The translations under genes were made by a program, and so were the position numbers. Below, piece after piece: positions 19,595-37,615 of a DNA stretch of 64,000 nt. Every line of letters begins with the position of its first letter. Within the stretch, counting starts at the first letter, position 1. Source of the stretch: a phage; sequence record QB031382.1; one strand, written 5' to 3'. The notes below the pieces were generated by a model. That model did not search any database. It had not been told where the DNA came from and worked only from the letters and a program-made list of their open reading frames with translations.

Positions 19595-20311
19595 ATGGCT
19601 ACGCTTTATAGTGATATATTGATGGACCCACAGACAGGCGATTTGGCGATAGACAAAGGTCTTGAGTTGATAGACTCAAACCAGGTAAGTCTGCGCCAGC
19701 GCCTGTGGATGAGGTTTAATACCTGGAAAGGGAGCTGGTACTTTGACGAGTTGTTTGGCTTCCCTTATATGGACTTTCTTAGTAAGAAGGTCATGAAGAC
19801 TGTTCTTGATAACAAGATTATGGAAGTGGCAAGACAAGAGCCGGATGTGCTAAACATCATAAACTTCCAGTCTACCATGGATCGAAGATCGAGAACATAC
19901 CAAGCGTTCTTTGAGGTTGTTACCAAAGAGAACGAGATTGTAAGGCTGGCCTTCGTAGGTCTTGATCAGTTCACCTACCCACAGCCTGATTCTGGGACAA
20001 CCTCTCTTTGTGATGATGAGGGTTGGATTAAGTGGGCTAATAAACTGTACTATCTGATCAACTTCAGATTGCCTAGAACCGGAGATGCCACATGGTGGAA
20101 CCAGTATGCTGGTCCTGAGATGGAAAACCCGATCCCTGTAGGCTCTCTGTTGACTCAGGATAAAGATCTGCTGATGACTGAGGCAGAACAAACCATTAAC
20201 CGCAATACCTGGACGCTTGCTCCAGATGAGCGCGAATACTCTGGTGTTATTGCTACCTCCAATGATGAGGCTATTGCCAACCAGTCTGGTCGTGCTATTG
20301 ATGTTAACTAA
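19595..20311 (+). CDS. Baseplate wedge protein (putative)
   Basis: 238-aa ORF in baseplate block. Confidence 0.35.
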   Translation: MATLYSDILMDPQTGDLAIDKGLELIDSNQVSLRQRLWMRFNTWKGSWYFDELFGFPYMDFLSKKVMKTVLDNKIMEVARQEPDVLNIINFQSTMDRRSRTYQAFFEVVTKENEIVRLAFVGLDQFTYPQPDSGTTSLCDDEGWIKWANKLYYLINFRLPRTGDATWWNQYAGPEMENPIPVGSLLTQDKDLLMTEAEQTINRNTWTLAPDEREYSGVIATSNDEAIANQSGRAIDVN

Positions 20312-20320
20312 GGAGAAATC

Positions 20321-20989
20321 ATGGCTGTAGCTTATCCTACAATACCAATTCCAGATCTTGAAGATGCAGAAACAGTCCTGAGTGATGACTTCTTGGTTGT
20401 CAACCAGACTGATGGGACAAGAAAGGCTAAGATTGACGATGTTGTCAACGATCTTAGCATTACTAAGATAGTCTATTTCACAGAGGGTGGTTATCTTAAG
20501 GGCAAGAAGGACTTTGCTTATGATCCAGAAACTAAGCGCTACTACACGTGGAACGGGGATTATCCTAAAATAATCCTCCCAGACTCCACTGTAGAGGGTG
20601 CTGGGGGTGTGTCTGCAAATGCCTGGTCTGTTTTTGGTGAGCTTGCTGCAACTTCTTCTGGCAGAATAGTTGATTACGGATCTATCGGTGGTCAGCTTGA
20701 TATGGATCTTGAAGTTGCGGATACCTTTAAGGTTCGACTAACTTCAAATACCACAATCTCTTTTGAAAATCAAACAGAAGGTCTTGAAGGGGTGGCGAGA
20801 ACCATAACCGTATGCATTACTCAGACCTCTGGCGGCAACAAAGTCTATTGGCCTGGTAATGTTAAATGGTCCTACGGAAGAGATCCTATCCTAACATTTA
20901 CAGCTGGTGCAACAGATATTTTCAAGTTAGAAACCTACGACAACGGGTTAACTTGGTACGGGGCACTGATTATAGCAGGAGCTATCTAA
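20321..20989 (+). CDS. Fibre/spike N-terminal anchor-domain protein
   Basis: N-terminal ~105 aa parallel the N-terminus of the 23624 product (D[D/Y]xLVVxQ.D.TR..KI.DVV ... EGG.L.G..DFAY ... AW.V). Confidence 0.5.
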   Translation: MAVAYPTIPIPDLEDAETVLSDDFLVVNQTDGTRKAKIDDVVNDLSITKIVYFTEGGYLKGKKDFAYDPETKRYYTWNGDYPKIILPDSTVEGAGGVSANAWSVFGELAATSSGRIVDYGSIGGQLDMDLEVADTFKVRLTSNTTISFENQTEGLEGVARTITVCITQTSGGNKVYWPGNVKWSYGRDPILTFTAGATDIFKLETYDNGLTWYGALIIAGAI

Positions 20990-20990
20990 G

Positions 20991-23588
20991 ATGCGTATTC
21001 AACACAACATTGATAACGTATTTCAGATGATTGAGGGGCACAGGAAGTGCCTCGATAACAACACAGGCATTACCAATCTCCCCACGCAGAACAAACTGGT
21101 AAACCAGGATGGACTTATAGCGTCAGGTTGGTCAGGGAGTAAGATAAATAATGATTGGGCAATGCATGAAGCTCAGGCTGTGTTGATTCTGGGGTACATT
21201 GAGGCATACAGGGCATCAAAAAGCGATTTTTACCTAGATAGGGCCAAAGAAGCTTGGGAAGCCTACAACAGTCATCTTCTAGGTGCATATGCAGTAGAAA
21301 GTAAAATGCAAAGATTGTCCCACTACCCATTATCCACAGACGGGGTTCCATCACATGGTGGGTTTAAAGATGTAGTGGTGTCTTTTACCAATGGTAGAGG
21401 AAAAATTCCAGCCGGATCTCCGACATGGGGTGAATACCTAGACAAGGCATTCCAAGCGTATAACGGTGTGCTAGGAAGAAACACTGTAGACTCTGATGTT
21501 TACGGCGGCACAGATGCTAACCCAAATTGGACAACATCTGGATTAAGTTGGTGGGTTGAGTGGTATATAGCATGGGATGGTAACCGCTATTGGGCCAACG
21601 GTAGCATAGCCGACAGTGGTCATACGTCTGCAGAGTTCGGCACAATCCAACTGCAGGATAAGGGTGTTACAGGCAGCCACAAGGTAACCTACTGTGTGAG
21701 ATTACCACAAGAGCAGGGTGGATCAGTGATACCTGCTGGATCCCCTGTAATTGTAAATCCTATAAATGTGGTTGCGGACAACCAAGCCCCAGAGTTGGAC
21801 GGGGAAGAAATGTGGTGTGACGCTTGTTATCAACTCTACACCTTGACAGGTGAGGAAAAGTATTATACAGCGTTTAAGCAGTCTTACAACAAGCTGCTTA
21901 ATTTCAGCGATATAAATGCCTACGACAAACTGTTTAGAAAGACCACGTTAATTAAGGCACCGTTCACAGATGGTACTTGTCTCGTCGCAGGAACAGTTCC
22001 TGTCATGAGCAGGGACAGTGACGGGTATATCAATTTTAGAATGAACGCACGTCAGCCTTGCGAAATAATTCAAAAAGGGACTACATACAAGATAGGCAGA
22101 GATGCTGAAATTGTTATGAATTTCGGAGGAGAAGGGGTTCTGTTCCAGCCACACTTCATTCTTAATGATGGTAACAATAACAAAAAACAGTATAGGATAG
22201 GTGTCCCTTTTGGAGGGGCAGAGGTAACAGAGACAGTTGCCAAGGTTACCGATTTCGTAGAGGTGGTTGGTAAAGATGGTAACCCGTATCTCTTACCAAA
22301 AGAGGAAAACATTGTCGTAAGCGGTGGCGCTAGTGTTAGTATGCAGTATGATACCGACATTTATAACCACTCCGACAACTTCACCCGTTGCAACATAGCA
22401 AGAGGCAAGGTAACTTTCAATTTTGGAAGAGAGATCTCTTTAAACTCAGTAACTTATCGATCAGATGATGAGATGGTAAGGGTCAAATTTCTTGACAAAG
22501 ACCGTTGGTTATGGTATGCTGATCTATATGCCACTAATGGACAATGGATAACAGAAACTCTTACCTTAGGTGATTTTAAACTAGACCCAACACAACCTCA
22601 TCACACAGAAGATGAGATTAAACCTTTCTTTGCTAACCCTAAAGGAATTACCTCTGTAGATTTCAGTCTGAGCGACAGGCAGATAGGCAATGGCTTGTTC
22701 GATCTGTATTGCGTCAACACGCTGCCGCAATTTTATGTTGCAGACAGAGATGCTTATATGATCTGGTTTAGTGTATGGATGGCAAGCAAGACAGAATCAA
22801 CAGCTAAGGTTGGTGATTGCTATGTCAGAAACTACAAGCAAGGCGCATACAGACACACTCCAGGTGTGTTCCCTGCCGGAAAGGTGATAGATAAGGAGAA
22901 TTATCTTCTAGAGGAAAGGCCAAATTGGCCCTATCCCGGCATGCAATATCCGGTAGTCTACTGTATGGGTGCGGAAAACATAGATCGTCAAAGATTGGCA
23001 AATACAATTGGATTTATGTACGACTCCCAAGTTTGGTATAATAACACATTTAGAACAGAAGGACCAGTTGCATCCCGCTACGTATGGCAGAGGGGTAATG
23101 AGGGGTTGACTGGTTGGTGGGAGATGGTAGATAACTCTAAACTCCAATCAAGAGCCTTTGTTGCTGCGTGCCGCACACTATATGAGCTTAAGAAACATAA
23201 AGAACCTGTTGATGAAAGACTGTTCCTGTTCTGCCAGAAATGGGCATGGTTCCTCAACAGATTCCAGTCATCTCATTCCGGAAATCTTCCTACAGACTTC
23301 AACACCTCAGGAGGATATTCTTATCAAGACAGAGGAGACAGGATGTGGGTGGTAGGTGAATGGCTTGCAGGTTGCTGCTGGCTAGGCCTTTGCGGGTATT
23401 CAGAAACAATACCCCAAATAGATATTGTTGTAGAAGCCTGTGTGAAGTTACTGCAAAAGCACCACTTCATTAACGGGGATAATGTTTTAAACGGCTGCTG
23501 GGCAGTTTCTGATCCGGTAGGCTATCACTCTGGCGAAATCCTTCGCGGTCTGGGACTTTATGCTCAATACCGTGGATTGTACCTTTAA
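20991..23588 (+). CDS. Large tail-associated protein, possibly an enzymatic spike body
   Basis: 865 aa, Trp/Tyr-rich. Starts 1 nt after the anchor-domain gene's stop. Confidence 0.4.
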   Translation: MRIQHNIDNVFQMIEGHRKCLDNNTGITNLPTQNKLVNQDGLIASGWSGSKINNDWAMHEAQAVLILGYIEAYRASKSDFYLDRAKEAWEAYNSHLLGAYAVESKMQRLSHYPLSTDGVPSHGGFKDVVVSFTNGRGKIPAGSPTWGEYLDKAFQAYNGVLGRNTVDSDVYGGTDANPNWTTSGLSWWVEWYIAWDGNRYWANGSIADSGHTSAEFGTIQLQDKGVTGSHKVTYCVRLPQEQGGSVIPAGSPVIVNPINVVADNQAPELDGEEMWCDACYQLYTLTGEEKYYTAFKQSYNKLLNFSDINAYDKLFRKTTLIKAPFTDGTCLVAGTVPVMSRDSDGYINFRMNARQPCEIIQKGTTYKIGRDAEIVMNFGGEGVLFQPHFILNDGNNNKKQYRIGVPFGGAEVTETVAKVTDFVEVVGKDGNPYLLPKEENIVVSGGASVSMQYDTDIYNHSDNFTRCNIARGKVTFNFGREISLNSVTYRSDDEMVRVKFLDKDRWLWYADLYATNGQWITETLTLGDFKLDPTQPHHTEDEIKPFFANPKGITSVDFSLSDRQIGNGLFDLYCVNTLPQFYVADRDAYMIWFSVWMASKTESTAKVGDCYVRNYKQGAYRHTPGVFPAGKVIDKENYLLEERPNWPYPGMQYPVVYCMGAENIDRQRLANTIGFMYDSQVWYNNTFRTEGPVASRYVWQRGNEGLTGWWEMVDNSKLQSRAFVAACRTLYELKKHKEPVDERLFLFCQKWAWFLNRFQSSHSGNLPTDFNTSGGYSYQDRGDRMWVVGEWLAGCCWLGLCGYSETIPQIDIVVEACVKLLQKHHFINGDNVLNGCWAVSDPVGYHSGEILRGLGLYAQYRGLYL

Positions 23589-23623
23589 CATAGGGGGCTG
23601 TTTGCCCCCTTTCAGGAGAAAGA

Positions 23624-26600
23624 ATGGCTGATATTAAAGTTGTCAGAATTGAATCTCTTCCTGCCACTACCGCAGTGACAGAGGATGATTACCTGGTTGT
23701 TCAACAACCAGACCTGACCCGTCGTGTAAAAATTGGCGATGTTGTCCATGTGGATGGGACTGTTTCTCATGTAATCTCCTTTAAGGAAGGTGGTAAGTTA
23801 AACGGCCCAATGGATTTTGCCTACTTCGAAGAGGAAGACCTCTACCTGCGTTGGAAAGGCGAATTTCCACACACTGTGCCTGCACTGTCTTCACCGTACT
23901 CTGATGGTGGGATTACCGATGCTGCATGGATGGTATATACAGATCCGTCCTTAAGGGAGGAGCTGGAGTCTACCATTGGCGCATCTATGATCATGACAGC
24001 CGAAGGGCAGTCTGTCCAGGATGTAATGGATGTTACGGTTCAGACAGCCAACGATGCTAAAGCACTTGCACAGCGGGTAGATTTTGGTACAGTGCATACT
24101 GTAGGCGATGTTATTCACCTTGTCAACTTTGTTGGTCCTGCAGTTATTGAAGAGGGAAGAACTACTAACTACCCTTCTGTAGCAGCTGGTGAAAAATTTC
24201 TGAACGGTGTGGTATCTCGTCGTGATACTACGACTGTTGATGGTATTTTCCGTGGCGCTACCTCTGGAGCCATGTATACCATTGCAGTAACCAATGGTGT
24301 AGCAACAACAAAAAGAATAGCACTTCGTGATGAATTTAAACGCCTGGAGGCAAACAACCCAACAAGAACAGTTATCCGTGCTGGAGATGATTTAAACACG
24401 GCAGGGTACTTGCAGCTTGATGCAGCAGGCCGTTGGGGTATGTGGAACCAGCAAACAGCCTCGTGGCAACCTCTTGCTATAGAGCAAGGTGGTACAGGTG
24501 CCAGAGATGCCGCTGGAGTCCGTATCAATATCGGTGCTTTCTATAAGCAACGTGCAGCCCTTGAGCCAAATTTCAATATCAATAACTTGACTGGTAATCA
24601 GGATGGTGTATACTACCAGCCAATGACTGCTTATGCAACTGAGGCAAATGGTTACCCTGCAGGTTCTGGTGCTGGTCACTTGATTGTTTGGCAGAACAAT
24701 GCTAACGGCGGTACAGGTTGTCGTCAGGAATACTATCCATTCTCTAACGTAGATGTTTGGTATTTAAGAACCTATCAGGCCAACACAAACCAGTGGACTG
24801 CATGGCAGCCAATGGTCAGACCTCGTAACGATGATACCTTTAGATCGCACATCGGTCTCGGGTCTAGAAACTCCCCTACCTTCGGGCACCTTTACCTGTC
24901 TCAAAGTTCTGCTGATGTTAAGTCAGCATCCGGTATTGTTAACGGGGACAAATACAGCGCTGACGGTGTCCTTGAGCATGGATATAGGATCTACTCAGAG
25001 GTAAGAAACGACAATAAGGCTTGGTTAACAATCCACCTGCACAAAGGTGCAAAAGGATCTGAAACTCATCGGTATTTAGGATTCCGTGAAGATGGTGTGT
25101 TAGATTGTCCTAAGTACATGCAGGTTGGGGATCTTACTGGTCAGCTGACAAACTGGGGACTGGGAGAATGGATTCGTAGTTCAGGGGCAGAAAGAGGGTT
25201 CTGGGGTTCCAAGAAAGCCGCTAAGATGGTCGTCTGGGATGGCGGTATGGATGAATCCGGTAATGGTTCTCTAGAATGGGGTGTTTATAACAACCGGAAG
25301 GCCAAGTGGGAGCCTTTACCTCAAGCTGCAGGTGGTACAGGGGCTACAACCCTGGCAGATGCTCAGAGTCTGTTCAAAGTTCCTATAGCTGCGGGTGTCA
25401 AAGATTTCTTAACACTGCCAAGAACTGCAGGTATGGAAGATGGGAAATATTACCCAATCATCGTTAGAACAGATCCGTATTATGCTCCAGCAACTGGCAC
25501 CGATATTACCCTAGTCACCAGATTGTCATCTGGCGGTGACCCTATGAACTGCGCCACCTTACAGTGTCACTATAGAACTGGCGGTTGGACAGATAGAGGG
25601 GACTCTTTCTACGGGGTAGTGAATTTCTATCAAAATGAAAAAGCACTTCTTGGGATGGTTGCTCCAACAAGGGGTAAACAAGAGTATGTTGCTTTCTATG
25701 CAGAGGCTCGTGCTTTCCCTGTCAGCATATACGCAAGTAGAAATGTTGTCGAAGTGTTTACCAGAGAGCAAGATTATCAAGTCGGCTCTGTAACAAACAA
25801 TCAGGACGGTGTTAAGTTCGTTGCACCTCTCCAGTCAGCAGATTTAAATCTGGCTGTTCTCGGAGATAACAATACCAACACCAGACCTATTGTTGACTTC
25901 AAAGGTACCTCTGGGTTCTACACTGGCGGCGGCACACAGTGGCACTATATAGGCACTGCTGAACGCTATGCGGTGATGAGCAAAATGAACATGCCTAAAG
26001 TCGAACTATGGGCTGACGGTATTGACTATTTGTGCTACGGCAGTCCTAGAAAGGCGTTATTCTCTAATGCAGGATTTCAGTGTGCATCAGATGGGACAGA
26101 TGATCTGACTAACGGTACGTTTACCTCTAAATGCGGTAATGGTGCTGGACTTCAAGGTCAGGCAGAGTTCAGATCTACCCCAGAAGCTGGTCAAGTTATT
26201 GTTCGTGATGTTGTAGGTTCCGCTCACAGATTCTACAATTTCAACAAAGACGGTACTTTCTCGGCCCCTGGTGGTTTTGTATGCCACACAGGTGCAGACT
26301 GGAACAACCAGTTCGGAAATAATAATCCGTCCAAAATACTGGCTGGCAACGTCAACGGGCCTGAAGGTTCAATGGTTGTTGGCGGGTTGTCTGTGGTGTT
26401 TTCTGGAAACTTTGCTTTCCAGATGGCTGGTCGCCTTGATAGGTTGTATACCAGATCTATCGAGGGTGGTGCTCACAGACCGTGGAACAAGATCTTCTCA
26501 CACAGAGGTGCAGGTCTTGAGTCTACAGACCTAAACACTTACGATGGTACTTGTGAGGGCATCTATCACCAACATCTTGATGCCAACTCGACATCTGAAA

Positions 26601-27436
26601 GACATTACCCAGCACCGTACGCTGGTACTCTGATTGTTTACCAGAACAATGCAAACAATCCGAAAGGATGCGTACAGGAGTACATCACACGTTTTGGTGA
26701 CAGATATACTCGTGTTGGTAACATGGATAGAACTGGGACCACTTATATGTGGGAAGTTTGGCGGCACGATTCTGGTAAAGCTATTCAGTTACGCCCGAAT
26801 CGTAATGTTGATGAAACAGATAAAGAGCTGTGTATTCATGTTGGTGGTTCTGATAACCCCAGAAACAACACCAGCCTACCTGCTGATAATGCCAGATTAT
26901 TCTATTGGGGTAATGGCGCGGATAGGAAGAATGTGCTGGAGCTTCAGATAAGTGATAACTCAACAGCCGCCAGCTGGGTATTCCACTGTGGAGCTAAGGC
27001 AGATGAGGCTAAATCAAGATATTTTGCTGTCAACGGCACGGTAGAATGCACCACTGTTAGTCAAAGTTCTGACCGTGACCTGAAGGATAATATAGAGGTA
27101 ATACCTAACGCTCTGGAAGCAATTAGAAAGATGAAAGGCTATACCTACACCTTGAAAGAGAATGGTATGCCTTATGCAGGCGTGATTGCTCAAGAGGTTA
27201 TGGAAGCATTGCCAGAGGCAGTAGGGTCTTTCGTGAAAAGGAAGGAAATAGAAGGTCCTACTCAAGACGGTATTCCTCTGATGACCGAGGAAAGGTTCTA
27301 TAACGTTGACTACGCAGCTGTTACAGGCTTGCTTGTCCAGGTTTGCAGGGAACAGGATGATAAAATAACCGCCCTTGAGGAGCAGGTTAAAAAATTGACA
27401 GAGGTTGTTACTGGGTTGCAAGAGAAACTGAAGTAA
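23624..27436 (+). CDS. Tail fibre/spike with C-terminal intramolecular chaperone (peptidase S74-like) domain
   Basis: 1270 aa; N-terminal anchor shared with 20321. C-terminal DRDLKDNIEV ... YNVDYAAVTGLLVQVCREQDDKITALEEQVKKL matches the auto-cleaving chaperone domain pattern. Confidence 0.65.
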   Translation: MADIKVVRIESLPATTAVTEDDYLVVQQPDLTRRVKIGDVVHVDGTVSHVISFKEGGKLNGPMDFAYFEEEDLYLRWKGEFPHTVPALSSPYSDGGITDAAWMVYTDPSLREELESTIGASMIMTAEGQSVQDVMDVTVQTANDAKALAQRVDFGTVHTVGDVIHLVNFVGPAVIEEGRTTNYPSVAAGEKFLNGVVSRRDTTTVDGIFRGATSGAMYTIAVTNGVATTKRIALRDEFKRLEANNPTRTVIRAGDDLNTAGYLQLDAAGRWGMWNQQTASWQPLAIEQGGTGARDAAGVRINIGAFYKQRAALEPNFNINNLTGNQDGVYYQPMTAYATEANGYPAGSGAGHLIVWQNNANGGTGCRQEYYPFSNVDVWYLRTYQANTNQWTAWQPMVRPRNDDTFRSHIGLGSRNSPTFGHLYLSQSSADVKSASGIVNGDKYSADGVLEHGYRIYSEVRNDNKAWLTIHLHKGAKGSETHRYLGFREDGVLDCPKYMQVGDLTGQLTNWGLGEWIRSSGAERGFWGSKKAAKMVVWDGGMDESGNGSLEWGVYNNRKAKWEPLPQAAGGTGATTLADAQSLFKVPIAAGVKDFLTLPRTAGMEDGKYYPIIVRTDPYYAPATGTDITLVTRLSSGGDPMNCATLQCHYRTGGWTDRGDSFYGVVNFYQNEKALLGMVAPTRGKQEYVAFYAEARAFPVSIYASRNVVEVFTREQDYQVGSVTNNQDGVKFVAPLQSADLNLAVLGDNNTNTRPIVDFKGTSGFYTGGGTQWHYIGTAERYAVMSKMNMPKVELWADGIDYLCYGSPRKALFSNAGFQCASDGTDDLTNGTFTSKCGNGAGLQGQAEFRSTPEAGQVIVRDVVGSAHRFYNFNKDGTFSAPGGFVCHTGADWNNQFGNNNPSKILAGNVNGPEGSMVVGGLSVVFSGNFAFQMAGRLDRLYTRSIEGGAHRPWNKIFSHRGAGLESTDLNTYDGTCEGIYHQHLDANSTSERHYPAPYAGTLIVYQNNANNPKGCVQEYITRFGDRYTRVGNMDRTGTTYMWEVWRHDSGKAIQLRPNRNVDETDKELCIHVGGSDNPRNNTSLPADNARLFYWGNGADRKNVLELQISDNSTAASWVFHCGAKADEAKSRYFAVNGTVECTTVSQSSDRDLKDNIEVIPNALEAIRKMKGYTYTLKENGMPYAGVIAQEVMEALPEAVGSFVKRKEIEGPTQDGIPLMTEERFYNVDYAAVTGLLVQVCREQDDKITALEEQVKKLTEVVTGLQEKLK

Positions 27437-28679: not shown

Positions 28680-29104
28680 TGAGCACACACCCTCGTTTAG
28701 TAGACTGGCAAGAAAGATTGTGGAAAGTGTTTGACGAAGAAGCCACCGTCCCGTTTGAATGGGGATTCCACGATTGCTGCACTTTTGCGGCTAAGTGTGT
28801 TGATGCCCAATACGGAACAGATTTTCTTTCTAACTTTGAAGGAACTTATAAAACAGAGTTGGAAAGCAAGAGATGGTGTATGCTTCGTTTCAAAACCACA
28901 CACCTGCCTACTGTTTTTGATCTCTTTTTGACTCGACTGGATACTCCTAAACAGGTTCAGCGTGGTGATATTGTTATTTTCGAAGGTCTGAACGGCCTCA
29001 CCGCTGGTGTGTTCTGGAACAACCAGATTTGGGCGAAAGGTGATAAAGGGATCTTTACGTTCGATATGAAAGATTCTATCGTTGTTGATGTCTGGAGGTA
29101 TTAA
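28679..29104 (+). CDS. NlpC/P60-family peptidase-like tail protein (lambda gpK C-domain-like)
   Basis: ATG 28679 after GGGAGG. FHDCCTF matches the catalytic-Cys region of NlpC/P60 tail-tip proteins. Immediately upstream of the J-like gene. Confidence 0.5.
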   Translation: MSTHPRLVDWQERLWKVFDEEATVPFEWGFHDCCTFAAKCVDAQYGTDFLSNFEGTYKTELESKRWCMLRFKTTHLPTVFDLFLTRLDTPKQVQRGDIVIFEGLNGLTAGVFWNNQIWAKGDKGIFTFDMKDSIVVDVWRY

Positions 29105-32100
29105 TGCCAATTGCAATGATTGATAACATCGTTGCTTCTGCAAGATCTTCAAGTTATGACTGGAACGCATCCAAGGCAGCTCTGGCTGACAGCCTGAACA
29201 CTGTTACCACCAGAACTCTGGATAAGATTTTCGAGGGCAACAAATCTTACAGAAGTCAGCAAGATAGACAAAAGCTTCTCAGATCTTCTGCTGCACCTTG
29301 CTCTGTAGTATATGGAAAGACACGCACATCTGGATTGCTTGCGTTTTTGGAGCAGGACAGGGACAGAACCCTTCATTGTGCTATTGTTCTTGCTAATCAT
29401 CCCTTGGAAGGCATAGAAGATATACTTATCGACGGTAATCCTATTTCTTCGTATGGTGATTTGGTATCATGGGAGTTACATAACGACAGGAAAACCTCTG
29501 ATCCTTTCATGGGCACACACTGCCCTTCATGGTCACCAGACATGATAGGTAGAGGGATCAGTTGGCTACGTGCCAGCTTCAAGTTCGACCCTAACAAGTT
29601 TCCTTTTGGGTTGCCAAACGTTACACTCGTTAAGGTTGGTAAAAAATGCTATGATCCTCGTATCAGTAAAGAGGTGTACACCAATAACGCATCCTTGGTG
29701 ATCCTGGACTATTTAAGAACGTACCTTAAATGTCCTGACGAAACCATCAACTGGGAGTCCTTTAAGGAGGCTGCCAACATATGCGACGAGGCGGTAAAAA
29801 ACGCTGACGGAACCAGTGAGCGACGTTACACCATTAACGGTGAGTTTGACATGGATGAGGCCCCAGCAAGTATTATGGCAGAAATGCTGAAAGCTTGCGG
29901 TGCAGACCTTAGTTATGTTGCTGGTAAGTATGGTTTGCTGGTTGGTGCATACTATGGTCCGGCAACAATGACATTGAGTGAGGACTGTGTCTGTGGTGAG
30001 GTTAAGATCTATCCGGAAGCCTCATTTGACAAAAGATCTAACACAATAACTGGCAGATTCACTAGTCCGACCAAAGGGTATTCTGAAACAGATTTCCCAT
30101 CAGTGTTTGTCCCAGAGTGGATAGAGAAGGATGGAGAAAGAAAGATAATCGATATAGACTATCGCTTTGTTACCAGTCCTTATCAAGCTCAACGTGTTTC
30201 TGCAATCTTCTTAAGACGTGCTAGAGCTGGCAGGATTATTGAAGTCACCTGCAATATGCGAGGTTTTAAATTTAAGCCTGGCCGTTACGTTACAATGAAT
30301 CTCCCAAGTATTGGTATAGTAGGCCAAGAAATGAGGGTTCTTGAATGGGAGTTCACCAAAAAGGGTGGTGTCAAGGTAAAACTTCGTCAAGATGCTAAAG
30401 AGTGGAATGATGCCACAGGGCAACTTCCGGATTCTGGTGATGTAGATATTCCGATATCTCCATCTGGTGTAGCTCAACCGCAAAACTTCAGATACTCCGT
30501 CCTCCAAGCTGGGGAAATAACTCACGGTGTTCTGGCTTGGGACAACGTTGGGACTTACGCTCAAAATATTGTGCAGGTAAGAAAGAACGGAGAGATTGTT
30601 TGGACAGCACAGACAGTTGAGCAGTTTGTCCGAGTAGAAGGCTTGACCAAAGGGTCATACACAGCAACCGTGGTTGCAACATCTTATAAAGGTGGTGTAT
30701 CTCCAGAAGCGTACTGCGAGTTTAACATTCAGGCACCTGAAGCTCCTGTTTCTGTAGAGGTTAAGCAGGGATACTTTGCTATCACCTTGATTCCACACAG
30801 CAGGGATTTAGCAAGTGTAAGCACCCAGTATGACTTTTGGACATCTGGTATGACAAGGTTGCCCGACACCAGCGATGCAACCGTTACTTCAAACGCCACC
30901 CGTATGGGTGTTGGTTCAACTTGGACATCCGAAGGTCTGCAGAACGATAAGGTTTATTATTGGTATATTCGAACCACAAACGCTTTTGGTAGCTCTCAGT
31001 TTGTAGAGTGTGCTGCACGCTGCTATACCTCCATTGAGGATTTGATGCCTCAGATAGATGCTGAATTCAAAAAGACAGAAACTTATAAAGAGTTGATGAG
31101 CACTTTGGATTCCTCTATTGAAGAGGTTGAAAATCGTGTCACAGAACTTAACAGGTACATGGATGGTAGAGTTGACGAGGCTTTTGACCACATGGAAGGT
31201 GAGTTCTCTAGAGTAGACAAGCTGTATGCTCAGTTGGGAGATAGGGTTGGAATATTCATCCAAGAAACCCACGACAACTTCCAGGACGTTAATGGAACGC
31301 TTACCACTCTAGATCAGAAACTGGTAGCCACTCAGAACAAGTTTGCAGATGATCTTTCTAAAGAAAGTGGCAAGCTTGCTTCTCTAATCCAGACCACTAA
31401 CAAAGCTACAACCGATCTGTTAAATCAGAAAACTGAAGCTTTGGACGAGAAGATTGTTTCAACCAGGGGTGAGTTGGAAGATGCTTTAGCGCAGGAAAGC
31501 TCTGAGCTGAACTCCCTGATTGTATCAACCAATAAAACGACTACAGATCTCCTTAATCGGAAAACCGAGGCTTTAGACAATAAGCTGACGGCAACGAAAG
31601 GTGAGTTGACCAACAATCTGCAGAATGAGAGTGCTAAACTATCGTCCTTGATTGAGTCAACCAACAAATCCACCACTGATCTTCTTAATAAGAAAACAGA
31701 GGCGTTGGATGAAAAACTGGTTGCTGCACAGGGCGAGTTGACTGAGCAGATCGGAGATGTTGAAAAAGGCTATCTGGCTGGTGATAAGAGCCTAGAGGGC
31801 AAGTTGAATACTCAAAGATCTGAGTTGGATGCGAGCATTCTGAGCACTAACCAGGCCACTGTGGACTTGCTGAACAGAACTTCTGAGACTCTTGACCAGA
31901 AGATTAGCCAGACCAACGCCACAGTGTCCAAAAACTACACCACGCTTGATGGTAAGATAAACACCGCCAAGTCTGATCTTAATACGTTGATTTCTACCAC
32001 CAACAAGGCCACAACTGACCTGTTGAATCAGAAAACGGCAGCTTTGACTGAGCAGTTAACCACTGCTAAAGGGCAGATTACAACCAACACCAATAATATT

Positions 32101-33249
32101 ACTGGGTTGGACAATAAGCTGACTCAGACGAAGAAAGACTTGTCTGCGAATATTTCTGAAACTAATAACGCCACTGTTGATCTGATTAACGGCACAGCGT
32201 CAGCTATTCGTCAAGAACTTGCTGTTGCTAAGCAGGAGATCATTGATGGTGTTGGCGATGTGTCCGAGATCAGGGCTGCAGTAGCTACAACAGCTAAGGC
32301 TGTGACCGACTTAGAGGGTAAAGTAAATGCTCAGTGGGGTACAAAAATACAGGTAGACTCCGCAGGGAATAAATATGTTGCAGGTATCCAGTTGGGGATG
32401 GAAGGGTCTGGGGGCCAAGTTCAATCCTACTTCATGGTTAGTGCAAACAATTTTGCGGTATACAATCCTGGCAATGGAACAGCAACCCTTGCTTTCGCAA
32501 TCAAGAACAACCAAGCGTTCTTGAAAGACGCTTTTATAGAGAATGGCACGATCTCCTCTGCCAAGATCGCACAAGAAATTTCGTCAAACAACTACGATGG
32601 CAACGGGTACCATAAATACGGTTGGTATATTAACAAGAACGGGCACGCCCAATTTATGGATGTGTGGGTGAAAGGCAACATCAACGCCAGTTCTGGTAAC
32701 TTCACAGGGGCAGTTAACGCCACTAGTGGTACCTTCCGTGGGGATGTTTATGCCAATAATGGTAGCTTTAGAGGCACCATAGATGCAACCGGAGGTACCT
32801 TCCGTGGTCGTGTAGAAGCTTCTGTTATCCGTGCCAACCAGTTCGAAGGTGCAATTGTTGCACACAGGACTTACGGGGATTGTGCTCCAGTATATAACTC
32901 TCAGCAAAGGGTTTGCCGTTGGAGGTGGAGATACGTAGATAACGTTTCAGGTCAGGGTAAGAACGTAACATTCTTCTTTAAACTGAACGGTACTCTTGCC
33001 AGCTCCCAACTGAATGCATGGATAGCTGGTCATCAGATCCTTGCTGGCAAGAAGTATTTTAACGACAACAACGGCATGTGTGCGGTAGGGATAACAGGTC
33101 TGGGTGAACAAACTATAGACATTGTTATCGAGATTTACACACCGTGGTCAACGTCGAGCGTGACAGGTGTCACAATCTCCTGTCCCACTGTGATAGTAAG
33201 TCGTTCAAACTCTAGCTTCCAGGGACCTTGGAACGAGTCTCACAACTAA
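29104..33249 (+). CDS. Host specificity / central tail fibre protein, lambda gpJ-like, with expanded coiled-coil repeats
   Basis: Segments parallel lambda J as recalled: APEAPVSVEVKQGYFAITLIPH, YYWYIRTTNAFGSSQFVE, KYVAGIQLGMEGSGGQVQSYFMVSANNFAVYNP, NINASSGNFTGAVNATSGTFRG. Confidence 0.7.
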   Translation: MPIAMIDNIVASARSSSYDWNASKAALADSLNTVTTRTLDKIFEGNKSYRSQQDRQKLLRSSAAPCSVVYGKTRTSGLLAFLEQDRDRTLHCAIVLANHPLEGIEDILIDGNPISSYGDLVSWELHNDRKTSDPFMGTHCPSWSPDMIGRGISWLRASFKFDPNKFPFGLPNVTLVKVGKKCYDPRISKEVYTNNASLVILDYLRTYLKCPDETINWESFKEAANICDEAVKNADGTSERRYTINGEFDMDEAPASIMAEMLKACGADLSYVAGKYGLLVGAYYGPATMTLSEDCVCGEVKIYPEASFDKRSNTITGRFTSPTKGYSETDFPSVFVPEWIEKDGERKIIDIDYRFVTSPYQAQRVSAIFLRRARAGRIIEVTCNMRGFKFKPGRYVTMNLPSIGIVGQEMRVLEWEFTKKGGVKVKLRQDAKEWNDATGQLPDSGDVDIPISPSGVAQPQNFRYSVLQAGEITHGVLAWDNVGTYAQNIVQVRKNGEIVWTAQTVEQFVRVEGLTKGSYTATVVATSYKGGVSPEAYCEFNIQAPEAPVSVEVKQGYFAITLIPHSRDLASVSTQYDFWTSGMTRLPDTSDATVTSNATRMGVGSTWTSEGLQNDKVYYWYIRTTNAFGSSQFVECAARCYTSIEDLMPQIDAEFKKTETYKELMSTLDSSIEEVENRVTELNRYMDGRVDEAFDHMEGEFSRVDKLYAQLGDRVGIFIQETHDNFQDVNGTLTTLDQKLVATQNKFADDLSKESGKLASLIQTTNKATTDLLNQKTEALDEKIVSTRGELEDALAQESSELNSLIVSTNKTTTDLLNRKTEALDNKLTATKGELTNNLQNESAKLSSLIESTNKSTTDLLNKKTEALDEKLVAAQGELTEQIGDVEKGYLAGDKSLEGKLNTQRSELDASILSTNQATVDLLNRTSETLDQKISQTNATVSKNYTTLDGKINTAKSDLNTLISTTNKATTDLLNQKTAALTEQLTTAKGQITTNTNNITGLDNKLTQTKKDLSANISETNNATVDLINGTASAIRQELAVAKQEIIDGVGDVSEIRAAVATTAKAVTDLEGKVNAQWGTKIQVDSAGNKYVAGIQLGMEGSGGQVQSYFMVSANNFAVYNPGNGTATLAFAIKNNQAFLKDAFIENGTISSAKIAQEISSNNYDGNGYHKYGWYINKNGHAQFMDVWVKGNINASSGNFTGAVNATSGTFRGDVYANNGSFRGTIDATGGTFRGRVEASVIRANQFEGAIVAHRTYGDCAPVYNSQQRVCRWRWRYVDNVSGQGKNVTFFFKLNGTLASSQLNAWIAGHQILAGKKYFNDNNGMCAVGITGLGEQTIDIVIEIYTPWSTSSVTGVTISCPTVIVSRSNSSFQGPWNESHN
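31351..32240 (+). repeat. In-frame tandem repeats (period ~123 nt) encoding coiled-coil modules in the J-like protein
   Basis: At least three clear copies (from 31351, 31474, 31597) of L..SLI.STNK.TTDLLN.KTEALD.KL..T.GEL, then degenerate copies. Confidence 0.7.
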
Positions 33250-34856: not shown

Positions 34857-35543
34857 ATGGCAGAGATTAAGTCGGATGTTAACCACATCCACACTCTGCC
34901 AGATTTTGTTCAGGGGGGTCTTGACTACCTGCCTGGAGATTTTCTGGCTGAGAAGGTTAATTTAGTCACATTCTTAACCGTGTACCTTAAAAGGTTGGAG
35001 GATGTTGATAAGATGCTGGTAGGTTTGGCTGAAGGAAGATTGCTTAACAATGCCAGCGGAAGATACCTTGACGAAGTTGGTAATCAACTTGGTATTCTTA
35101 GGAATGGACTTTCAGATGCTGATTTTCGTGCCACACTAATTATTCAGCAGGCCGCAGCATCAAGGGGCGGGACTCGCGAAGATGTCATCTCCACCTTGCG
35201 ACAATTGTTCGGAAGAGACAATTTCGATACGTGGAAAGGAGACAACTTCAGGCTTGACATAAATATTAGAAAAACTTGCTTTGACATATTGCAGTCTATT
35301 GATCAGATCTTAGACATGCTACCATTGCCTTGTCATTTGCGTCTTACAGAATCGCAAGGGCAAGCTTTTGGTTTTGAAGGGGACTCTACAGCTCTTGGCT
35401 TCGGATCGGTGTGGGAAGAAAACCAATTCGGAGTTGGTGGGCTGGCTACTTTGTTGTATGTTCCTGACGTAAGACCTGACTGGGACACCACAACCATTTA
35501 TTGTGAAAGTATTACAGTAAACGCAACTAGACAGGAGGGTTAA
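34857..35543 (+). CDS. Baseplate or tail protein (P2 gpI-like, putative)
   Basis: 228-aa ORF directly after the baseplate-J-like gene. Confidence 0.35.
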   Translation: MAEIKSDVNHIHTLPDFVQGGLDYLPGDFLAEKVNLVTFLTVYLKRLEDVDKMLVGLAEGRLLNNASGRYLDEVGNQLGILRNGLSDADFRATLIIQQAAASRGGTREDVISTLRQLFGRDNFDTWKGDNFRLDINIRKTCFDILQSIDQILDMLPLPCHLRLTESQGQAFGFEGDSTALGFGSVWEENQFGVGGLATLLYVPDVRPDWDTTTIYCESITVNATRQEG

Positions 35544-37615
35544 TGGCAACAGCTGTTTTTAAACCTTACCGTGATTACTCTACAATGGCTGCACAGTTTC
35601 ATTACCGAACAGTTCAGGATACTGCTGTTCCTGGGAGGGATTATAATCATGTTGAGGGCGATGTAACTATCCCGGTTGGGGCAACCAGTATCGAGATCCC
35701 TGTAGAAATTGTTGACAAATTGCCAAACAGGTTGCCAAGAAGCTTCTTTATGGAGTTTTCATCAAACTCACAAGGGGTTATGATTGGAACACAAAGAGCG
35801 AAATGTACAATAGTTTCAGATGAGAATCTTGACAGAATATCTTGGGATACCGTTGAGGAGAGAATGTTTCACCCAAGATATTGGGTTACAACCACACAGC
35901 AGACTGAAAGCACCTGTATTGTTGCGGATAATAACTGCTGTATTAACCGTTTAGTGTCAAGAACATATGGAGGCATGGCTGGGTGCATTTGGGAAACAGT
36001 TGACAAGTATGACCATTTCGGCATTGGATTTGATGATCACTACGAGATGAGAAACACCAAGCTTTGGTTCAGAATGTCAATAACCAATGCCAGCAACTTC
36101 TCCACCCCTGAAAAGATGATTATGACTGTAGACCTTGTTGATGGCACAATCATCTATGTTCCTTTAGCTCAATATGCTGTCAGCATCTCAGAGGATAAGA
36201 ATGTTGCAGAAATTCATATTGATTTCGAGGACTGCGTCGGGATGGACCAGAACAACAACATGATGGGTGTTGATCCTCGGCAGGTGAGAAGGATTTTAAT
36301 ACCACTTATGCCTAAAGATTGGGTAAGTAATAGCACAGACCCAAGAACGGAAAATGTAGAGTGCGAGTTGCGTCTAGATCTGCTTCAGCCGGACACAGGC
36401 TGGAAAATGATGCAACTTAACAATATCCAGGTGAAAGAGCACGACGTCGGGATCTGCACAGCATATGACGATATGTGGAACGTATCTCCTTTAAGGGTGT
36501 TGAGCAATATCAAGCGTCTAGGCTATACCGGAACCATAAACCATTATGTTGGTATGAGCCATTATTATGATTACACATGGTCCGGAACTCAATGGTCTAT
36601 AAACAGAACAGGAGCTCTAAACGCTGCAGCTTACAAATGGCACGATGATTTTATGTACAATGCCAAACGACATGACTTTGATGTTATGCAGTCTGTAAGC
36701 TTTGAGCTTTACAGTGATGCCTGTCCGTTGGAATGGACCCAAAGGGATTGGAACGATAACTATGCTAAAACAGGCTATACACCTTGTAGTTACCTCCTGT
36801 CTCCAACCATTGAAGAGGGTATGAATTTCCTTACTGCAGTATTTAAGAATTTTGCATCAGCCGCTATGAGGAACAGCCTGCCAGTGATCATGCAGATTGG
36901 TGAACCGTGGTGGTGGTTCAATACCGATACTCGTAAGCCTTGTATTTATGACTACCCTACAAAACAGGCGTTTTATGATGAAACTGGTGAATATGCCCTA
37001 GACATTGGGACTATTGACGATCCTAAAACTGGTGGTGTTTATGACAAGTATGTAGCATTTTGTCGTGGTAAGCTTGGCGCTCGTATTGCAGCTATTTCAA
37101 AGGCAATAAAAGCACACGCTGCATCGGCTCAGATGACAGCCTTGCTGTTTTTCCCAACCATTATGGAAACCGAGCTTACGCAAAAACTGAACCTTGCCGA
37201 CCAATATAAAAAGGAAGCAGGCGCTCTTGATTTCTTCTGCACTGAGTGCTACGATTGGGTGATGCAGGGTGGTATTGAAAAGGCAAAAGAGTCTGTAAAC
37301 ATACCTATCGTTAAGTTAGGTTGGCAACCGTCTGAAATACAATACCTTGCAGGGTTCGTTCCTAGTAAAGAGCTTGCTCCAGTATATGGCTACGACCCAA
37401 CCAGGAATTACCAAGAATTTTTATGGAGATGTATTTGCGGAAACATGGCAACCATAGAGTATAGATACCCTGAGGTAAAACAGTATGTGTGGGCATACCC
37501 GCAAGTAATGTCTGACAGCATCACTGTTACCGCCAGAGATTCTACCGTGCTTCATATGGGGCAGGTTGCTCTGAAAGGGTATGTAGAAGATGTTGTCCCG
37601 CCAGACTTCTCATAA
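35543..37615 (+). CDS. Tail fibre/spike protein with N-terminal Calx-beta-like module
   Basis: 690 aa. N-terminus (VPGRDYNHVEGDVTIPVGATSIEIPVEIVD) resembles a Calx-beta/Ig-like module; remainder Trp/Cys-rich. Confidence 0.4.
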   Translation: MATAVFKPYRDYSTMAAQFHYRTVQDTAVPGRDYNHVEGDVTIPVGATSIEIPVEIVDKLPNRLPRSFFMEFSSNSQGVMIGTQRAKCTIVSDENLDRISWDTVEERMFHPRYWVTTTQQTESTCIVADNNCCINRLVSRTYGGMAGCIWETVDKYDHFGIGFDDHYEMRNTKLWFRMSITNASNFSTPEKMIMTVDLVDGTIIYVPLAQYAVSISEDKNVAEIHIDFEDCVGMDQNNNMMGVDPRQVRRILIPLMPKDWVSNSTDPRTENVECELRLDLLQPDTGWKMMQLNNIQVKEHDVGICTAYDDMWNVSPLRVLSNIKRLGYTGTINHYVGMSHYYDYTWSGTQWSINRTGALNAAAYKWHDDFMYNAKRHDFDVMQSVSFELYSDACPLEWTQRDWNDNYAKTGYTPCSYLLSPTIEEGMNFLTAVFKNFASAAMRNSLPVIMQIGEPWWWFNTDTRKPCIYDYPTKQAFYDETGEYALDIGTIDDPKTGGVYDKYVAFCRGKLGARIAAISKAIKAHAASAQMTALLFFPTIMETELTQKLNLADQYKKEAGALDFFCTECYDWVMQGGIEKAKESVNIPIVKLGWQPSEIQYLAGFVPSKELAPVYGYDPTRNYQEFLWRCICGNMATIEYRYPEVKQYVWAYPQVMSDSITVTARDSTVLHMGQVALKGYVEDVVPPDFS

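Follow-up and report, generated by a model that had tools for sequence, protein, structure and literature searches.

The window analysed here is a 64,000-nucleotide (nt) stretch of phage DNA (sequence record QB031382.1), and the locus of interest comprises three consecutive genes on its plus strand. Gene A (20321..20989, +) encodes a 222-amino-acid (aa) adaptor or short-fibre protein, as delimited in the list of open reading frames (ORFs). Gene B (20991..23588, +) encodes an 865-aa virion protein that is predicted to be a glycoside-hydrolase-like (alpha/alpha)6 barrel with large beta-sandwich insertions. Gene C (23624..27436, +) encodes a 1270-aa long tail fibre that is homologous to rV5 gp41 and EmilHeitz bas49_0026 and is annotated as tail fibre in relatives. 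A and B are almost certainly two real genes. Our best reading, which we regard as probable, is that A is an adaptor fibre carrying B as an accessory enzyme without an anchor of its own. Homologs of A are rV5 gp43, FV3 gp43, bas49_0024, phi92 gp140 and PVP-SE1 gp51, and homologs of B are rV5 gp42, bas49_0025, phi92 gp141 and PVP-SE1 gp50.

The three genes lie directly downstream of the genes for the baseplate hub, the central spike and a homolog of the phi92 sheath initiator (gp139). Megablast with 20321-23950 retrieved 118 phage records that cover the region at 94-98% identity, all of them Vequintavirus (rV5/FV3-like) E. coli myophages, and the genes in the window are 97-99% identical to annotated genes in more than 100 genomes. 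A, B and C are separate coding sequences in the annotation of FV3 and EmilHeitz (Bas49), and two coding sequences for A and B are retained in every annotated close relative examined. They are ordinary, previously annotated genes; the module they form is uncharacterised. The same region is also matched at 94-99% identity by 18-23 'Campylobacter phage' records (MG0656xx, host C. jejuni), several of which have odd lengths (58-150 kb) and no annotation and look mislabelled or contaminant rather than like true Campylobacter phages.

A and C share an N-terminal attachment module. In A it spans 20321..20635 (+, aa 1-105) and consists of an N-terminal motif of about 45 aa followed by the Tail_spike_N domain (aa 51-105); the paralogous module of C is found at 23624..23938 (+, aa 1-105). 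The initial annotation had proposed that the first ~105 aa of the two products align, and the pairwise alignment is significant, with 39 identities over 99 positions (39%; A 8-105, C 7-105) and E=6e-19 in a single BLASTP comparison. Both N-termini also match Pfam PF18668 (Tail_spike_N, TSP1/Gp66 N-terminal domain) above the curated gathering cut-off of 25 bits, A with 38.5 bits and C with 41 bits at aa 46-103. When the N-terminus of A or C was searched with phmmer against every ORF of 60 aa or more in the window, the other one alone was found (E about 1e-18; next best E>0.05). From these phmmer and BLASTP scores, we conclude that the likeness is far beyond chance and confined to these two window genes. 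The first ~45 aa of A also occur in phi92 gp143, the endosialidase, and in phi92 gp140, and the full module of ~103 aa recurs in PVP-SE1 gp49 (48.5% identity to PVP-SE1 gp51). The anchor is therefore common to the adaptor and the adjacent fibre and is conserved in three genera.

Parts of this picture have been described before. The N-terminus shared by PVP-SE1 gp51 and gp49 was remarked by the PVP-SE1 depositors, and the rV5 paper remarked on a P22-tailspike-like N-terminus (PMC3606486). Mass spectrometry of rV5 virions detected gp41, gp42 and gp43 (PMC3606486), which places the homolog of the 222-aa protein in the virion. The common N-terminus and the presence in virions are already published, and the finding as first stated is essentially known. 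Towards its C-terminus, gene C encodes a Peptidase_S74 intramolecular chaperone domain (27068..27223, +, aa 1149-1200; PF13884, E=7.6e-15, 55.4 bits, above cut-off). The length of the C product varies, with 1270 aa here, 1266 aa in FV3 and 1478 aa in EmilHeitz (L001 12304-16740), where an extra 333-nt ORF follows; these differences are consistent with the allelic variation of this fibre reported by BASEL.

Beyond the anchor, the C-terminal ~105 aa of A, within 20645..20986 (+, aa 109-222), constitute a separate beta-rich domain, hereafter the C-domain, which contains the Asp-box-like motif TYDNGLTW; no other part of A is conserved from one phage lineage to another. By tblastn, 511 phage records match the C-terminal half of A, and a full-library search with the C-domain yielded 4033 protein clusters at E<=1e-3, 106 of them at E<=1e-10. 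The proteins that bear the domain are 86-2036 aa long, and almost all of them end in it. The AlphaFold2 (AF2) model of A reaches a predicted local distance difference test score (pLDDT) of 75 overall and of 85-90 in the C-domain. Gene A matches phrog_7760 'tail fiber protein' (E=8e-119); a general homolog search retrieved 4 relatives even with a profile, and a profile built from A together with its C-domain relatives found no match among PDB sequences. For PF26209 (Phage_phiTE_241_C), a precomputed match exists on the distant relative P0080; locally neither A nor P0080 matched this family, the Pfam copy used being probably without the model.

FV3 gp43 and bas49_0024 carry the BASEL product name 'sialidase domain protein'. 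A sialidase is a beta-propeller with several Asp-boxes and catalytic residues. We rejected this identity for A, which has a single Asp-box-like motif and models as a small beta domain. A BNR match on an A homolog is sub-threshold, with 13.5 bits against a cut-off of 27. The label probably goes back to the single TYDNGLTW motif and is likely wrong.

Gene B had initially been described as Trp-rich, and with 27 Trp among 865 residues (3.1%, compared with 2.0% in C) the enrichment is present, but mild. Matches to B are found by tblastn in 525 phage records. A general homolog search returned 5-6 relatives even with a profile, a PDB sequence search gave no match at E<=1, and a BFVD fold search gave just unnamed or 'tail fiber' proteins. 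Because few homologs were retrieved, the structure of B was predicted from 7 sequences and is of moderate confidence. B models as a glycoside-hydrolase-like (alpha/alpha)6 six-hairpin barrel, with helices at residues 59-96, 269-320 and 655-860, between which lie beta-sandwich regions at 125-236 and 329-613; the beta-sandwich insertions total about 500 aa. It does not model as a trimeric right-handed parallel beta-helix, and we rejected B as a tailspike depolymerase of this classic type. The family profile of B gives a weak match to cellobiose 2-epimerases (E=0.0015).

Across 14 lineages with 25-77% identity, 61 residues of B are invariant. Among these, E60, D270 and E272 are positioned at the starts of predicted barrel helices and are candidates only for catalysis. 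We infer from the invariant residues a conserved active or binding site, and hence a ligand that would be conserved rather than serotype-variable. The N-terminus of B is conserved in all lineages, without any lineage-specific extension. The authors of the S144 study reported an HHpred hydrolase signal for ORF17 and a shape unlike fibre or spike; judging from the relatedness of S144 to SE4, ORF17 is probably a relative of B. We also considered B as a fibre of the N4 gp64-like 'deacetylase' type, linked by BASEL to the N4 glycan receptor (NGR), and rejected it, as the tblastn match of N4 gp64 falls elsewhere in the window, at 36593-37522 (+; 27% over 332 aa, E=8e-28). This match is contained in the ORF at 35543-37615, and N4 gp65 matches weakly just 5' of it. 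That ORF probably encodes the fibre labelled 'glycan deacetylase', for which a link to NGR is drawn in the BASEL and mBio papers.

The association of the C-domain with B extends far beyond the Vequintaviruses. At 17 of 17 loci, a small gene ending in an A-type C-domain stands directly 5' of the B homolog as a separate ORF, and the hidden Markov model of the domain matches the gene upstream of every B homolog examined. The loci are those of the window, EmilHeitz, FV3, phi92 (gp140/gp141), PVP-SE1 (gp51/gp50), SPN3US, a FelixO1-like Erwinia phage and a near-identical metagenome contig, the Rosemountvirus UPF_BP2, the 7-11-like podovirus GAP52, a 157-kb Vibrio phage, the autographivirus Kaonashi, the lambda-like KLB28, an Asteriusvirus jumbo phage, a Burkholderia prophage, a P2-like contig and another metagenome contig. 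Carriers of the pair thus include myo-, sipho- and podoviruses as well as prophages. From one lineage to the next, the N-terminal parts of the A homologs show no relationship and correspond to the attachment domain in local use: PF18668 in the window, the T7 tail fibre N-terminal domain PF03906 in Kaonashi and PF08400 (prophage tail fibre N-terminal) in KLB28. In the Burkholderia prophage the A homolog has 473 aa and contains SPRY. The Kaonashi pair occupies the position of T7 gp17, between a gp16-like transglycosylase and the holin, with no other fibre gene in that stretch.

On the evidence of these sequences, the unit of C-domain and B is best read as a portable cassette, of which phage families would swap just the N-terminal attachment domain of A. 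Our search of the literature found no account of such a cross-family cassette or of an (alpha/alpha)6 nature of B beyond annotation-level remarks. Two of the arrangements differ in how or where the pair is placed. In the metagenome contig ERR11172694_13567 (L015 5001-9902), the counterpart of A is a bare C-domain of 107 aa without attachment domain, and the B homolog has 1633 aa with a weak Gly_rich_2 (PF21722) extension, which raises the question of how the pair is mounted. In UPF_BP2 (L008 4225-7805) and GAP52 (L009 3982-7657), the cassette follows right after head and connector genes and is not beside baseplate genes; the module may be located at the neck or another site in some lineages.

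Published knockout data separate the roles of A and B. In the HIDEN-SEQ transposon screen of Bas54 (bioRxiv 10.1101/2025.11.20.689424), the A homolog bas54_0025 ('sialidase domain protein', 19834-20502) was hit at 7 of 47 TA sites and called Essential. The B homolog bas54_0026 was hit at 94 of 189 TA sites, with insertions from 29 nt into the gene, and the C homolog bas54_0027 at 154 of 238; both were called Intermediate and tolerate disruption (bioRxiv 10.1101/2025.11.20.689424). Given these differing calls, the functions of A and B can be separated, and the role of A goes beyond carrying B. The initial picture of A as an anchor protein is therefore too narrow, given its widespread C-domain and its being essential while B is dispensable. 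For the structural side, BASEL states that it is unclear which Vequintavirinae genes build which fibre. The cryo-EM study of phi92 counts gp140 with the fibre candidates that it did not place and assigns no gene to fibre II, and in the phiTE and RBPseg cryo-EM papers no homolog of A or B was identified. One fibre of the RBPseg work, TC8, touches an unassigned density with its head.

The junction of A and B has the form TAA-G-ATG (20987..20993, +), in which the A stop codon (20987-20989) is separated by one spacer base (G 20990) from the B start codon at 20991; it is of the translational-coupling type. As first noted, the 222-aa ORF ends 1 nt before the 865-aa ORF, which is read in a different frame; relative to A, this is the +1 frame. 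A Shine-Dalgarno-like AGGAG, read from the sequence, is placed at 20977..20981 (+) within the 3' end of A, 5 nt before the TAA and 9 nt 5' of the B ATG. In most other lineages, GGAG or AGGAG is likewise present in the last codons of the upstream gene, and phi92 has an annotated ribosome binding site. Over the 17 loci the gap between A and B takes values of -8, -4, -1, +1 or +3 nt, with each of the three relative frames represented. The ratio of non-synonymous to synonymous substitution rates (dN/dS) against EmilHeitz and FV3 is 0.03-0.05 for A and 0.02-0.04 for B, with 161 synonymous and 27 non-synonymous differences between B and its EmilHeitz homolog. Strong purifying selection acts on both genes.

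The 1-nt gap and the change of frame at 20989-20991 are all that speaks for A and B being a single spike gene broken in two, either as a pseudogene after a frameshift mutation or as an artefact of faulty sequencing. We give this explanation, which the initial annotation had entertained as a frameshifted or decayed single spike gene, practically no credence. An identical split is present in 118 relatives that were sequenced independently, and a split recurs in 17 of 17 distant lineages with differing gaps and frames, dN/dS is 0.02-0.05 in both ORFs, and B has its own Shine-Dalgarno sequence and ATG. The A frame contains 73 stops when read through B, and the B frame is open for just 5 codons 5' of the B ATG. 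No fused A-B form was found among the 17 loci inspected or among the B relatives in the database matches. Two candidates for a fusion, P0004 (1157 aa) and P0010 (1633 aa), were rejected, since their extra length comes from internal or C-terminal additions and they have no N-terminal A-like part. Both products were detected in virions, and the knockout phenotypes of A and B differ. A programmed ribosomal frameshift or stop read-through, yielding an A-B fusion beside A after the model of the tail chaperone G/GT, would fit the abutting ORFs and the in-frame pairs of SPN3US and KLB28, which are separated by a stop and 3 nt. It is nevertheless extremely improbable. The 15-nt window 20976-20990, where a +1 shift could join the two frames, holds no slippery heptamer; the relative frame is 0, +1 or +2 depending on the lineage, with some overlaps of 4-8 nt, so that no single conserved mechanism could apply; and a Shine-Dalgarno sequence precedes the B ATG. 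A split with such varied gaps and frames across lineages points to an ancient two-gene arrangement with translational coupling rather than to decay or to a conserved recoding signal. The abutting, out-of-frame ORFs are not a split gene. The other alternative considered initially, a two-protein spike, holds in outline: A and B are a syntenic pair of genes, each intact, under selection and with its own start, and both products were reported in rV5 virions (PMC3606486). It needs the correction that B is no classic beta-helix depolymerase spike.

For the two genes together, our best reading remains that A carries B. A would be a short adaptor fibre, by analogy presumably trimeric, that attaches through the N-terminal module in common with C, so that both would plug into equivalent tail sites. 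Its last ~105 aa would hold and present B, which has no attachment domain of its own. B would most likely serve as an accessory glycan-cleaving or glycan-binding subunit for a conserved surface polysaccharide, dispensable on K-12, and A would have an additional essential structural or triggering role. Docking of B on A is suggested by the conservation of C-domain and B as a unit on very different tails, by the N-terminal domain of A as the sole lineage-specific element, and by the Kaonashi pair standing alone at a fibre locus; physical binding between the two is, on this comparative basis, fairly likely. Several observations weigh against the proposal. B matches no Pfam family at E<=0.1 and no glycoside hydrolase family, and its AF2 model, built on the 7-sequence alignment, has a pLDDT of 64.8 and a predicted template modelling score of 0.55. 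Members of the C-domain family far outnumber B proteins, and some of these members, such as P0012 and P0080, are not followed by B; the C-domain is therefore not exclusively a dock for B. A Mantel (mirror-tree) test of the pairwise identities of the A C-domain against those of B gave r=0.25 and p=0.07, which is not significant. The 2026 cryo-EM study of phi92 fitted gp140 into no fibre density and did not mention gp141. With A essential and B dispensable on K-12, carrying B cannot be the sole role of A.

The contrasting essentiality in Bas54, the thousands of C-domain proteins of which some lack a downstream B, the non-significant Mantel test and the phi92 study's handling of gp140 as a fibre candidate by itself would all agree with A and B being independent virion proteins. 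A would then be a self-contained short fibre or baseplate component with an essential role of its own, B would attach to the particle by way of another partner, and their adjacency would reflect no more than co-transfer or co-regulation. We consider this unlikely. B has no lineage-specific attachment domain and yet is found on myo-, sipho- and podovirus tails, the upstream gene always supplies an attachment domain fused to the C-domain (17/17), and in Kaonashi the pair is alone at the tail-fibre position. The polarity could also be reversed, with B forming an arm of the structure to which A and C would be docked by their N-terminal anchors. The description of phi92 fibre I as an L-shaped, arm-like scaffold with gp143 at its tip and the resemblance of the gp143 and gp140 N-termini are in keeping with such an arm. 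B should then be at least as essential as A, yet it tolerates insertions from 29 nt onwards and A does not, and the conserved partner of B is the C-domain of A rather than its N-terminal anchor. We rejected B as a scaffold for A and C on the essentiality data, which imply indirectly that particles without B would keep A and C, and regard it as very improbable.

The adaptor reading may be extended, tentatively and with more doubt than confidence, to all lineages that carry the pair. The ~105-aa C-domain and B would together represent a universal plug-in, in which the C-domain acts as a knob that recruits an anchorless, probably non-trimeric (alpha/alpha)6 glycanase acting on a Proteobacteria-wide glycan and not on a serotype-specific one. 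Each tail type would fuse the knob to its own attachment domain, and in Vequintaviruses the adaptor would additionally be essential.

Farther downstream in the window, the ORF at 29104-33249 (+) encodes a 1381-aa product with about 7 protein-level repeats of a coiled-coil-like unit of about 36 aa (…STNK(A/T/S)TTDLLN(Q/R/K)KTEALD(E/N)KL…); Tandem Repeats Finder detects no DNA-level repeat array there. In relatives this product is annotated as 'central tail fiber J' or 'lateral tail fiber with fibronectin type III domain'.

For annotation, A and B should stay two genes. A as adaptor for an anchorless glycosidase-like protein offers a concrete hypothesis for fibre maps of the Vequintavirinae, including fibre II of phi92. 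If the cassette does move between tail types, it would provide a ready-made module for engineering phages with added glycan-degrading activity. The universal plug-in, if true, would define a type of receptor-binding or depolymerase machinery in phages that stands apart from the trimeric beta-helix spikes.

Several known systems share features with the module proposed here. The capsid spike gp52 of Pseudomonas phage Pa223 (PDB 9ny6) is homotrimeric and comprises a short region for attachment at its N-terminus, a beta-helical body and a knob at its C-terminus, and the phi92 authors report that AlphaFold3 models of gp140 resemble it; the similarity is modest. Pa223 gp52 decorates the capsid and has no described B-like downstream partner. 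The (alpha/alpha)6 glycoside hydrolases and epimerases (GH48, GH9, GH8, GH105, GH88, GH76, AGE superfamily) are approached by B through its weak profile match to cellobiose 2-epimerases and the invariant acidic residues at its predicted helix starts. B differs from them in having just 9-13% identity, no match to a Pfam glycoside hydrolase family, about 500 aa of predicted beta-sandwich insertions and a location on the virion.

The closest parallels to the proposed mode of attachment are found in multi-component tail appendages. In the branched tailspike complexes of Ackermannviridae (CBA120 TSP1-4) and of G7C (gp66/gp63.1), several receptor-binding proteins with common N-terminal attachment modules form multi-protein appendages, as proposed here, and A and C have the same Tail_spike_N domain. 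The enzymatic subunits of CBA120 and G7C are trimeric beta-helix spikes that bear attachment modules themselves, in contrast to B, which has a different predicted fold and no module; here the module is borne by the 222-aa A. In the podoviruses K1E, K1-5 and SP6, a small adaptor of the gp37 type with a tail-binding N-terminal domain presents a separately encoded enzymatic receptor-binding protein. Kaonashi resembles these phages in that its A homolog, with an N-terminal domain of the T7 fibre type, stands at the gp17 position. The K1E, K1-5 and SP6 adaptor-plus-tailspike systems are cited in PMC13450770. In the module described here, by comparison, the putative dock is a C-domain of ~105 aa, and the cargo would be of the (alpha/alpha)6 type instead of an endosialidase, a lyase or a beta-helix spike.

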